Origin: Sinorhizobium meliloti
GTDB taxonomy: Bacteria > Pseudomonadota > Alphaproteobacteria > Rhizobiales > Rhizobiaceae
Assembly: GCF_017876815.1 (NCBI RefSeq)
Contig: NZ_JAGIOS010000003.1
Location: 1,470,001 to 1,502,000 of the forward strand
DNA: 32,000 nucleotides
Direction: 5' to 3'
Part shown: positions 13,420-22,783 of the stretch, in pieces
How the letters are laid out: each line of letters starts with the position of its first letter
Numbering within the stretch: position 1 is the first letter of the stretch
Translations under genes and position numbers: made by a program
The notes under the pieces: generated by a model
Told to the model about the DNA's origin: nothing
The model's database searches: none
Seen by the model: the letters and a program-made list of their open reading frames with translations, nothing else

Positions 13420-13507
13420 GGCCGCAGGAGTGACTGAAGCAATGCTAATTGCTTTCTTTCAGATGGTTAGATCGGGAAATTGACGACACGGTCGAAGGAA
13501 CAATCGG

Positions 13508-13523
13508 TGTCGCAAAGCCGACA
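13508..13523 (-). promoter_or_regulatory. NifA upstream activator sequence, copy A
   Basis: TGTCGCAAAGCCGACA fits TGT-N10-ACA and lies about 90 nt upstream of the -24/-12 element. Confidence 0.7.
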
Positions 13524-13607
13524 AAGGTGACGAACAATGTCGTATGGGTGGTCGTCACGCGTCCGAGCATGTGGAGGCGTGGGCGCTCTTCCGAAACTTT
13601 GTTTAGC

Positions 13608-13859
13608 TCACCGAGCGTGGTGCCGTCCTCTAAGTGCTGACGGCATCGGTCGGAACGCACAAGCCCGTCGCCGCATGCGCGACATGACGTTGATGCGGCT
13701 CTGGAAGAGCACTTCGTTATCCGACGGGAAGCCAAGGCTCTCGTCTTCGACGGTGGACTCAGTTATGGTCTTCACTGGAGTCTGTACGGCGCAGGAGGAT
13801 TTGTGGAGGCCGTGGTGCTCCACGGAGCGGGGTCCATACCTGAATGCCAAGTGCGTCAT
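13608..13859 (-). CDS. small hypothetical protein (83 aa), paralogue of the body of the 20362-20664 ORF; 3' end probably decayed
   Basis: AGGGAA SD before ATG 13859 and high GC3. The core VEDESLGFPSDNEVLFQSRINVMSRMR matches IEDRSLGSPSKNEMHFHSRMKVMASMR in the copy-C ORF (16/27 identical). The tail runs into the cassette A upstream region. Confidence 0.45.
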   Translation of the reverse strand: MTHLAFRYGPRSVEHHGLHKSSCAVQTPVKTITESTVEDESLGFPSDNEVLFQSRINVMSRMRRRACAFRPMPSALRGRHHAR

Positions 13860-14246: not shown

Positions 14247-14262
14247 TGCAAAAGTCGTGCCA
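14247..14262 (-). promoter_or_regulatory. sigma54 -24/-12 promoter, copy B
   Basis: Minus strand TGGCACGACTTTTGCA. Confidence 0.75.
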
Positions 14263-18660: not shown

Positions 18661-19923
18661 TCAGCCCATGAGGAAATGCTGCGTGCCTTGCGCTTCAATG
18701 GCCTCCGCAAGCCGAGAGAGCGCGTGCACATAAGCGGCGCTGCGCAGGGTAATGCCTTTCTCCTGGGCGAGCGTCCAGACCGCGTCTCCTTCCTGCTCCA
18801 TCCTTGTCTTCAGCCGCGCATGCACCTGCTCGATCGGCCAGGAATCGCCTTGCCGGTTCTGCACCCATTCGAAATACGAAACGGTGACACCACCCGCATT
18901 TGCCAAGATGTCAGGGAGCACAACGACGTTCTTGGCGTTGAGGATTTTATCAGCTTCAAGGGTTATCGGCGCGTTGGCGAGTTCGAGGATGACGTGAGCC
19001 TTTACGCGTGCGGCATTTCCTGCGTGAACCATGTCCTCCAGGGCGGCCAAAACGAGCAGCTCGCAATTGACAGAAACAAGCTCGTCGGCAGGAAGCGTGC
19101 AGACGCCGTCTGAGCCTGCAAGGCTGGTGACGCTCCCCTGCCGCTTTGCGGAAATGAGCTTATCGACGTCGAGTCCCGAGGAGCACTGGACCCCCCCCTT
19201 CGAGTCCGTGACCGCCACGATCTTGAATCCGGCGGCTCCAAGCAGCTGCGCAATGTGCTTGCCCGCATTGCCGAAGCCCTGAATCGCCACCCTCGCGCCA
19301 GGCCGCAATCCGAGCTTTTGCGCCTGGTGTAGGAGGAGATAGTAGCCGCCGCGGGCCGTCGCGTCCTCCCGTCCGAGCGAGCCGCCGAGGGCGATGGGCT
19401 TGCCGGTGATCACCGCCGGGGTCACCTCGCCAACGATAGCGGCGTATTCGTCGGCCATCCAGGCCATAATCGTCGAATTGGTATAGACGTCCGGCGCCGG
19501 AATGTCCCGGTTCGGACCGATGACCTTGGCGAAACATTGAACATACCGGCGGGCGAGGCGCTCCTGTTCGGTCGCGGACAGATTGTGAATATCCACCTGC
19601 ACGCCGCCCTTGGCACCGCCAAGCGGCAACTTGATAACCGCGCACTTCATGGTCATCAGGAAGGCGAGCGTCTCGACCTCGTCGATAGTCACATCCGGGT
19701 GGAAGCGAATGCCGCCCTTGGTGGGGCCGAGCGTGTCGTCATAGCGGCAGCGCCAAGCGGGGTAGGACTTGCTCGCGCCGTCGTCCATGCGGATGACTAG
19801 ACGGGCTTGCGTGGTCTCGCGCGGCGATTTGAGTTTCTCGAGAACGTCCGCGGTGATGTTGAGGTACCCGGCTGCTTCGTAGAGACGTGCCCGGGCTTGG
19901 TCTAGCATAGTCTTGGGGACCAT
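18661..19923 (-). CDS. Glu/Leu/Phe/Val dehydrogenase family enzyme (glutamate dehydrogenase-like, 420 aa)
   Basis: Catalytic Lys motif KLPLGGAKGG, PTKGGIRFHP, dinucleotide fold VAIQGFGNAGKH, and C-terminal VSYFEWVQN. Confidence 0.9.
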   Translation of the reverse strand: MVPKTMLDQARARLYEAAGYLNITADVLEKLKSPRETTQARLVIRMDDGASKSYPAWRCRYDDTLGPTKGGIRFHPDVTIDEVETLAFLMTMKCAVIKLPLGGAKGGVQVDIHNLSATEQERLARRYVQCFAKVIGPNRDIPAPDVYTNSTIMAWMADEYAAIVGEVTPAVITGKPIALGGSLGREDATARGGYYLLLHQAQKLGLRPGARVAIQGFGNAGKHIAQLLGAAGFKIVAVTDSKGGVQCSSGLDVDKLISAKRQGSVTSLAGSDGVCTLPADELVSVNCELLVLAALEDMVHAGNAARVKAHVILELANAPITLEADKILNAKNVVVLPDILANAGGVTVSYFEWVQNRQGDSWPIEQVHARLKTRMEQEGDAVWTLAQEKGITLRSAAYVHALSRLAEAIEAQGTQHFLMG

Positions 19924-20258
19924 TTGATTCCGTTCCTTGTGTTCGTTGCAGCTATCGCGGGTCTGGGCGACATGAGCGGCGGTTGGCAGCTGCCGCCCGC
20001 AAGAGTCGTTTTAAAAATTTCGTCGATTTGGCGGTCGAGCCTCAGAGGCATGTTCTGGTTATCCTTCAGGGACTTGCATGAGAGTTGGAAGACGTAGTCA
20101 TTGTTTTCCCCCATGTCTGGCTGCGCTATCGTAGTTGTTAGCTGCTCGCGACGAGGCTGAGTCACTCGCGCCGCTGACGATGTCGGTTTCGACGACGGCG
20201 AGCGTTTTTGCTGACTATGTCCCAGTTTGTGGAACTCCATCTGAAGCAAACCTGACAT
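19902..20258 (-). CDS. hypothetical protein (118 aa from ATG 20258; the track gives 149 aa from 20351)
   Basis: GAAGGAGAG SD lies 6 nt before ATG 20258. Local GC is lower and GC3 only moderate. The 3' end overlaps the dehydrogenase start by 22 nt. No recognisable motif. Confidence 0.35.
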   Translation of the reverse strand: MSGLLQMEFHKLGHSQQKRSPSSKPTSSAARVTQPRREQLTTTIAQPDMGENNDYVFQLSCKSLKDNQNMPLRLDRQIDEIFKTTLAGGSCQPPLMSPRPAIAATNTRNGIKWSPRLC

Positions 20259-20361
20259 CTCGTTCTCTCCTTCATTCATCGGATCGCGGGCGGCGTTAGG
20301 TGTTTCCGATTTTGCTGCCAAGTCAGGCGGCGAGCTAAAGACAGACGCCAAGGTTTTCTTT

Positions 20362-20664
20362 TCAGTTGCTTGCTTTAGGGTTTCCGCTTGGACTTACCAC
20401 CACGGCCCTTGCCGAAATCGGTCTTGGCGTAATCGGCTTTGCCGAAACCGCCCTTGCCTTCCTTGAAGCTGCGGGCGGAACGCGGAAGCCGTCGCCGCCG
20501 CGCATGCTCGCCATGACCTTCATGCGGCTGTGGAAGTGCATCTCGTTTTTTGACGGGGAGCCGAGGCTGCGATCTTCGATGGGCGCGGTTACCGGCTGAG
20601 CCTTTCGCTTGGGCTTGCCGGTACCACCCTTGCCGTAGAACGCGATCTGACGCAGAGCTGCCAT
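20362..20664 (-). CDS. chimeric ORF: NifH residues 1-17 fused in frame to a small basic protein (100 aa as read; probable frameshift near 20465-20481)
   Basis: MAALRQIAFYGKGGTGK, then PKRKAQPVTAPIEDRSLGSPSKNEMHFHSRMKVMASMRGGDGFR. GC3 is near 100% in this frame up to about 20480, then high GC3 switches to another frame that reads SFKEGKGGFGKADYAKTDFGKGRGGKSKRKP* (stop at 20375). Confidence 0.6.
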   Translation of the reverse strand: MAALRQIAFYGKGGTGKPKRKAQPVTAPIEDRSLGSPSKNEMHFHSRMKVMASMRGGDGFRVPPAASRKARAVSAKPITPRPISARAVVVSPSGNPKASN

Positions 20665-20747
20665 CTTGCTTCCTTTGTTGTTTAAACTATTTCGGTTGTT
20701 CGGACACATGAATGCGCAACAGCATACGCGCCCAGCAGGGCTGATCG

Positions 20748-20763
20748 TGCAAAAGTCGTGCCA
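20748..20763 (-). promoter_or_regulatory. sigma54 -24/-12 promoter, copy C
   Basis: Minus strand TGGCACGACTTTTGCA. Confidence 0.75.
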
Positions 20764-20851: not shown

Positions 20852-20867
20852 TGTCGAGGAGCCGACA
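20852..20867 (-). promoter_or_regulatory. NifA UAS, copy C
   Basis: TGTCGAGGAGCCGACA fits TGT-N10-ACA. Confidence 0.7.
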
Positions 20868-22019: not shown

Positions 22020-22092
22020 TTGCTGTTAACCTCGATATTGTTTGTTTCACTGCGGTCCGAGAGCGGAGATCGGGATCAGCTGCGTTAGCCGC

Positions 22093-22375
22093 CCCCAGCT
22101 CGACAAGCGCGGCGAGTGTATTTTGGCAGGCCGTAGACTTGCCGATACCTCCTTACGTAGAACGCGATCTGACGCTGAGCTGCCATCTTGCTTCCTTTGT
22201 TGCTTAAACTAGTTCGGTTGTTCGGACACATGAAAGCGCGACAGATGCACGCCAAGGGGCGATCGTGCAAACGTCGTGCCGGACCGCAGGAGTGACCAAA
22301 ATAAAGCTTATAGCCTTCTTTCAAATCGTTAGATCTGGAAATTGACCATATGGTTGAACGAACAACTTGTTCGTT
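22093..22375 (-). repeat. nifH promoter / 5'-coding cassette, copy D (UAS lost; nifH codons 1 to about 32, frameshifted)
   Basis: ATG 22186 gives MAAQRQIAFY. After a 1-nt deletion a second frame reads GIGKSTACQNTLAALVELG (NifH has GIGKSTTSQNTLAALV.LG). Homology to the other copies stops at the position of the UAS. Confidence 0.8.
22266..22281 (-). promoter_or_regulatory. sigma54 -24/-12 element, copy D (degenerate: CGGCAC)
   Basis: Minus strand CGGCACGACGTTTGCA. GG/GC spacing is kept, but there is no TGT-N10-ACA upstream. Confidence 0.5.
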
Positions 22376-22783
22376 CCGTTCCACGGCACATTGCCTGCCG
22401 ATCAGCAGAAGATGCTGCTGAGCCCGTGCCATGCCGGTTAAGGTGAGCGCGAGAAGCTCCCGCGAACGCTCCTGGGCGCCCGAAGACGGCCAGTGTTGTT
22501 TCCGTGATGGCTTCGGCGAAAAAAGAATGGTTGGATCCCGCTTCGAAACCGAACATTCGCCTGGGAGGTGAAAGGATACGACCTGTCGGCGTCCATCTGA
22601 AAGGAGGCGGTAGACACGCACGGCTCCGGTCGAAACCTGATAGCACTTGTAGTTCAGATCACCGTGGGCATAGATCTCGCACCCCGGCTTGTAGGTGGCG
22701 ACAAGATGGGGCCGAGGAATTGCGGCTGGTCCAAGGTGTTCGGCCTCGATGGACTGTGGTTTGGCTTGTGCAGCGGCGTACAT
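22375..22783 (-). pseudogene. Crp/Fnr-family FixK/FnrN-like regulator gene, frameshifted and 3'-truncated
   Basis: Frame a: CYQVSTGAVRVYRLLSDGRRQVVSFHLPGE. Frame b: MFGFEAGSNHSFFAEAITETTLAVFGRP. Frame a again: RELLALTLTGMARAQQHLLLIGRQCAVER. The sequence then joins cassette D, and the C-terminal HTH is missing. Confidence 0.7.

Follow-up and report, generated by a model that had tools for sequence, protein, structure and literature searches.

On the symbiotic plasmid of a Sinorhizobium meliloti strain, a 100-codon reading frame that opens with the first codons of nifH is probably a translated but eroding remnant of a phage gene, with a product that would be non-functional or of residual function. 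Behind its NifH head lies a core shared with mos ORF1 and nfe1, and profile and pairwise comparisons trace this core to temperate rhizobial phages and one of their small early genes, an origin that is new here. The chimera has been in the databases since 1993 and the ORF itself is thus no discovery. The window, by which we mean the whole 32,000-nt stretch analysed, is part of a 1.56 Mb contig (C3) of a genome assembled in four contigs. The 421 bases around the ORF are 100% identical to pSmeSM11c of strain SM11 and to pSymA of RU11/001, both S. meliloti, and the window is pSymA of an S. meliloti strain close to these two.

The nifH promoter cassettes and the chimeric reading frame

Reiterated nifH promoter cassettes are a known feature of rhizobial symbiotic plasmids, as in the repeated sequences of R. 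leguminosarum bv. trifolii and P1/P2 of S. meliloti. The nifH start sequence occurs four times on the minus strand of the window (13354, 14164, 20664 and 22186) against a chance expectation of 0, and ten nifH-type starts were found genome-wide, the real nifH (C3:603836) included. Both a NifA upstream activator sequence (UAS) and a sigma-54 -24/-12 promoter stand upstream of the ORF under study, here called copy C after its cassette (Table 1), and cassette B carries an identical -24/-12 element at 14248-14262. The ORF is then opened by the nifH Shine-Dalgarno sequence (SD), ATG and N-terminal codons; the earlier note had described an in-frame head of NifH residues 1-17, and its translation proved exact. 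Cassette D (start at 22186) is followed by an ATP-grasp-like N-terminus in frame 3 relative to the nifH ATG, and a 232-aa ORF across its promoter (22085-22783) has only a partial FixK/cNMP-binding match.

Table 1. Features of cassette C and of copy B in the window
Feature	Positions	Strand	Basis or remark
NifA UAS of cassette C, TGT-N10-ACA	20852-20867	-	pattern search
Sigma-54 -24/-12 promoter of cassette C, TGGCAC-N5-TTGC	20749-20763	-	pattern search
nifH Shine-Dalgarno of cassette C, AAGGAAG	20669-20675	-	
Copy C ORF, 100 codons	20362-20664	-	translation as in the earlier note
nifH codons 1-17	20614-20664	-	16/17 identical to the genome's NifH (C3:603836)
Core (body), frame 1, phage early-gene family	20446-20613	-	profile, BLASTP, hhalign, GC3
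Junction zone, with SD-like AAGGAAGG	20446-20481	-	homology limits, GC3
3' two-thirds of a Lys/Gly-rich small ORF (47-52 aa), frame 3, start codon absent	20375-20466	-	
TGA stop of the literal frame	20362-20364	-	
Remainder of the portable leader	20179-20361	-	homology breaks sharply at 20179/20180
118-codon ORF	19902-20258	-	GC 54%, no GC3 signal; no Pfam/NCBIfam match
Glu/Leu/Phe/Val dehydrogenase, first real gene of the cassette C operon	18661-19923	-	Pfam/NCBIfam
Copy B ORF	13608-13859	-	family profile matches 13635-13769 (positions 7-50), E 1.2e-4
Copy B alternative-frame ORF	13445-13735	-	encodes the phage family's C-terminal half, as nfe1 does

Domain libraries are silent on the chimera: Pfam and NCBIfam gave no match to the window ORF, Fer4_NifH (PF00142) included, and PHROGs, Pfam and NCBIfam hold nothing for the window ORF, nfe1 or the free-standing relatives described below. 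In the ESM Atlas the NifH P-loop head alone was matched (scores <=0.83), and the AF2 model of the window ORF shows no confident fold (pLDDT 58.6, pTM 0.18). By tblastn against 400 Rhizobiaceae genomes, the body was found in the source genome only. Two candidate origins of the body were rejected: its similarity to nifH coding sequence past codon 17 is not significant (p 0.17), and it is unlike either NifT-like locus of the genome, as an origin from fixU/nifT would require.

Relatives among the mos and nfe leaders

The protein had been described in the earlier note as not assignable to any family; it belongs, however, with Swiss-Prot entries Q07602 (mos ORF1; Murphy et al. 1993, J Bacteriol 175:5193) and NFE1_RHIML (nfe1; Soto et al. 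1993, J Mol Biol 229:570). A search of 5.8 billion proteins returned seven relatives only, among them Q07602, titled 'uncharacterized 11.0 kDa protein in mosA 5' region' of S. meliloti L5-30, which the window ORF matches at 83% identity along 70% of its own length. In the SM11 GenBank record, too, the name given to a sister copy refers to the mosA 5' region, and the annotated 'protein nfe1' (NFE1_RHIML) of pRmeGR4b matches the query. Strains 1021 and 2011 carry the promoter part only. The core that follows the NifH head is common to the window ORF, mos ORF1 and nfe1, and sequence comparison places the window ORF in the mos ORF1/nfe1 group of chimeric leader ORFs. The genome has its own mos ORF1 at C3:661296, ahead of a dapA-like mosA; the interval C3:661296-663269 is a rhizopine-type mos locus with ORF1, the dapA-like mosA and a NifT-like domain at 663081-663269. 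The genes nfe1 and nfe2 reportedly lie behind NifA-dependent promoters, in work of Soto and colleagues in 1993.

A phage early-gene family as the source of the core

Searched against 1.84 billion representatives, a profile of the chimeras returned 24 proteins; these include free-standing ones, 87-110 aa long, that belong to Ochrobactrum/Brucella and Rhizobium laguerreae. A family profile was then built from five free-standing members alone, without any nfe1 or mos sequence, and it recovers both the window (20446-20577, E 1.7e-13, corresponding to profile positions 14-57 of 95) and mos ORF1 (E 1.1e-14). Of 400 genomes sampled from the order, only 2 gave a hit with the same profile, and it detected no intact paralogue in the source genome, where the earlier note had proposed looking for a chromosomal one. 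The family comprises at least 133 clusters, mostly of 95-112 aa and without a Pfam model, from Rhizobium, Sinorhizobium, Mesorhizobium, Agrobacterium, Shinella and other Rhizobiales. It also includes two phage genes, one in Rhizobium phage RHph_X2_25 (QWY83258.1) and one in Sinorhizobium phage NV1.1.1 (UYE95832.1, by tblastn), and in both phages the gene lies in an early operon divergent from the repressor, directly before the replication genes. A phage member is 51% identical to nfe1 over 71 aa (E 7e-20) and 55% identical to the window ORF over 38 aa (E 3e-13), and hhalign pairs the core with the phage family at 98.7%. Compared with the full-length family, copy C retains positions 14-57 only, with NifH where the N-terminus would be and out-of-frame DNA where the C-terminus would be. 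An intact family member is modelled by AF2 as four helices with extended linkers (pLDDT 87.3, pTM 0.43), and Foldseek of this model against PDB and BFVD gave no match at E <= 0.001. One chromosomal family member (L042, G572:C1:1075697-1075891) adjoins an ORF for an S24/LexA-like CI repressor, a setting consistent with a prophage immunity region.

The proposal that a small gene had been placed behind nifH promoter repeats is therefore borne out by the free-standing family, with its members of 95-112 aa, to which the two phage genes belong. Homologues with a conserved reading frame, the lack of which the earlier note had named as evidence against coding, were found in other genomes, and the coding claim accordingly survives. 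It is very improbable that the stretch is nothing but non-coding repeat DNA, or that it is a leader of structured RNA without coding history. Its frames are indeed labile, and the same DNA is read differently at different loci, but protein-level homology to free-standing proteins contradicts such a reading, as does a GC3 of 0.84 in frame 1 over the body. Nor is there a signal for an RNA element: Rfam gave no match, and no stable or conserved fold was predicted (MFE z-score -0.67, covariation term +0.58).

The frame switch as a seam between modules

The reported jump of the codon-bias signal in copy C was reproduced. In the tail, frame 3 (GC3 0.71) overtakes frame 1 (GC3 0.51), the two crossing over at ~20477, and frame 3 reads as the Lys/Gly-rich tail with its stop at TAA 20375-20377. 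Homology to mos ORF1 and the phage family stops at 20446-20454 (for mos ORF1 at ~20454), and homology to a Lys/Gly-rich ORF starts at 20466-20481; the frame switch is therefore a recombination seam between two spliced DNA modules. The GC3 jump arises because the core is joined out of frame to a 5'-truncated copy of the Lys/Gly-rich ORF. On other plasmids this ORF forms a family of 47-52 aa with its own SD and ATG; 7 of 10 full copies are intact, dN/dS is 0.46, and no match was found in phages. Its position is always that of a leader ahead of asd/kinase operons beside ectB. In several Sinorhizobium plasmids (L023:1557-1809, L024, L031-L035) the ATG of the intact ORF is overlapped by the stop of a 33-codon NifH-derived uORF (ATGGCTAA), an arrangement that looks like translational coupling.

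Other accounts of the frame switch had been raised in the earlier note, namely programmed frameshifting, a sequencing error and a recent frameshift. A -1 ribosomal frameshift from frame 1 into the Lys/Gly-rich frame 3 could draw on a frame 3 that has no stop between the beginning of the ORF and TAA 20375, and on an in-phase A_AAA_AAC heptamer at 20545-20551. The heptamer, however, lies 70 nt upstream of the GC3 switch, the junction itself is without a slippery site, and the heptamer is altered in nfe1 and four other copies. Frame 3 is moreover broken by a 2-bp deletion in the equally common 95-aa allele (AK83, pHRC017), in which frame 1 closes on the last 14 tail residues. With no stable or conserved RNA structure found, and with the shift accounted for fully by the module boundary, programmed frameshifting is extremely unlikely. 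It is equally unlikely that the sequence is in error, or that a gene intact in all else has very recently acquired a private frameshift. Indels of 1-2 bp do occur near the seam between close alleles, but 24 contigs encode the exact 100-aa protein, the complete genomes of SM11 and RU11/001, independent of each other, have identical DNA here, and no allele restores a full-length family protein; identity across many independent assemblies excludes sequencing error.

The mosaic was mapped by BLAST and by three-frame translation of every cassette of the genome and of 16 plasmid loci. Four modules, namely the nifH head, the core, the Lys/Gly-rich module and a second nifH initiation region, recur in varying combinations and frames. 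A 307-aa in-frame fusion of NifH(1-11) to an acetylglutamate-kinase-like (ArgB-like) protein is encoded at C4:58275 on the minus strand, and its linker is the Lys/Gly-rich tail DNA read in yet another frame.

A portable leader and its second copy

Promoter and leader together (20894-20179) recur at 92-93% identity in AK83 and pHRC017 with asd next, and constitute a portable unit. Within the leader, a second, diverged nifH initiation region, with SD, ATG and first ten codons, lies at 20229-20260 (ATG 20258) and is 25/32 identical to the original, a similarity reached in 0 of 2000 shuffles; on other plasmids this diverged module starts asd or argB-like genes. From 20180 on, the sequence matches DNA that in ABS7 and AK83 is placed after asd and a 'uridylate kinase'-like gene. 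Given the breakpoint at 20179/20180, the 118-codon ORF is therefore probably a deletion scar, left where asd and the kinase gene were lost, and no gene. A search of the minus (coding) strand of the leader for an attenuator-type terminator was negative.

The paralogue behind cassette B holds up well. Copies B and C align at the protein level with a local score of 86, reached in 0 of 2000 shuffles, the core being ~16/27 identical, and their DNA is 76.6% identical over 111 nt. The further claim that copy B has its own SD and N-terminus stands in part: a weak GGGAA precedes ATG 13859, but this start is not conserved, the ATG being out of frame with the body in the S. medicae and S. meliloti orthologues (L011, L027). 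In another orthologue (L022) the body is internally frameshifted. The alternative-frame ORF of copy B extends into the UAS of cassette A, and copy B retains both family halves, separated by a frameshift and an internal deletion. That the small gene had 'twice ended up' behind nifH repeats does not follow from the two copies, since body and promoter cassette move as one unit on many plasmids and independent capture is needless.

Selection, decay and the most probable history

Decay is evident across the copies, of which 18 out of roughly 560 located on plasmids were compared. In five of 15 A-type bodies the frame is lost, either through indels of a length not divisible by three or through a body that does not share the frame of the ATG, the remaining 10 being in frame with the nifH ATG; B-type copies other than that of the window are all frameshifted, and the C-terminal continuation is different in every lineage. 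Variable sites are distributed 15:9:20 by codon position. Pooled over the ten in-frame bodies, dN/dS takes the values 0.41, 0.81 and 2.17 for frames 1, 2 and 3, and only 2.7% of column shuffles come down to 0.42. Bona fide asd beside the cassettes has a dN/dS of 0.38. As substitutions are codon-structured and dN/dS is near that of asd, weak purifying selection may continue on the core.

Taken with the module boundaries, these observations suggest a history in which a duplicated NifA/sigma-54 nifH promoter, with its 5'UTR, SD and first 17 codons, became cassette C, which would place an operon of dehydrogenase, NAD kinase and TrxR-like genes under bacteroid-specific control. The N-terminal and middle part of a phage early gene would once have been fused to nifH codon 17, and the fusion would have spread with the promoter among plasmids of Medicago symbionts. 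It would have been eroding since, with nfe1 keeping most, mos ORF1 less and copy C only positions 14-57. In copy C the phage-derived frame is cut after position 57 and joined out of frame to the Lys/Gly-rich 3' part. Ribosomes would start at the nifH ATG and follow the literal frame to the TGA at 20362, and the truncated product would have no function of its own or a residual one.

The same selection data bear on a competing proposal, that NifH(1-17) with its core is a functional domesticated phage fragment that bacteroids would produce under NifA control; it might, for instance, serve as a partner-binding peptide with a part in traits such as nodulation competitiveness. In its favour, the frame-1 dN/dS resembles that of the neighbouring asd, the nifH ATG frame is kept in two-thirds of the copies (10/15), the most conserved family motifs fall in the retained segment and nfe1 retains ~71 colinear residues. 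Yet one third of the copies are frameshifted, tails are different in every lineage, copy C is without the C-terminal half that the family conserves, and structure prediction gives the window ORF no confident fold; mos ORF1 itself was reportedly undetectable in nodules and dispensable, in work of Murphy and colleagues in 1993. We consider this proposal unlikely, if worth keeping in view. Somewhat more doubtful is a broader reading that joins these threads, in which a conserved rhizobiophage early gene was domesticated behind nifH promoters, most completely in nfe1, and its retained N-terminal segment, expressed in bacteroids about as strongly as nitrogenase, would still target a partner of host or prophage origin and thereby contribute to strain differences in nodulation competitiveness, with the 47-aa Lys/Gly-rich ORF likewise a bacteroid micro-protein. 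An eroding, translated remnant remains the reading that we favour for copy C.

Significance and comparison with known systems

With the origin of the core traced, the old nfe locus, which concerns nodulation competitiveness, becomes accessible to testing, and a phage early family comes to light that is well conserved, wholly uncharacterised, without a Pfam model and worthy of a name. The locus also details how symbiotic plasmids bring accessory metabolism into the NifA regulon, through a promoter and leader unit of ~700 bp in which short modules bounded by SD-like sequences are pasted before different operons. Annotations should treat both the 100/115-aa CDS and the downstream 118-aa ORF as leader remnants.

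Cassette C resembles the reiterated nifH cassettes in that UAS, -24/-12 element and nifH 5' end are duplicated before unrelated genes, and differs from them in adding a phage-derived coding fragment and further small-ORF modules. In mos ORF1 of L5-30, too, a nifH-type promoter, N-terminal codons of NifH and the core are present; the tail of mos ORF1, however, is a remnant of an ATP-grasp N-terminus where the window ORF has the Lys/Gly-rich module, and the genes downstream are mosABC in the one case and the dehydrogenase/NAD kinase operon in the other. The nfe1 gene of pRmeGR4b has the same NifH head and core, its DNA being 85% identical over 194 nt, but its ORF extends into the next nifH promoter and its ~71 residues colinear with the phage family include the C-terminal half, whereas the window copy is cut after position 57. 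Finally, the proteins of RHph_X2_25 and NV1.1.1, together with ~130 prophage and chromosomal relatives, carry the conserved motifs of positions 14-57 just as the window ORF does; unlike it, they are free-standing, with their own start, a conserved C-terminal half and no nif promoter.
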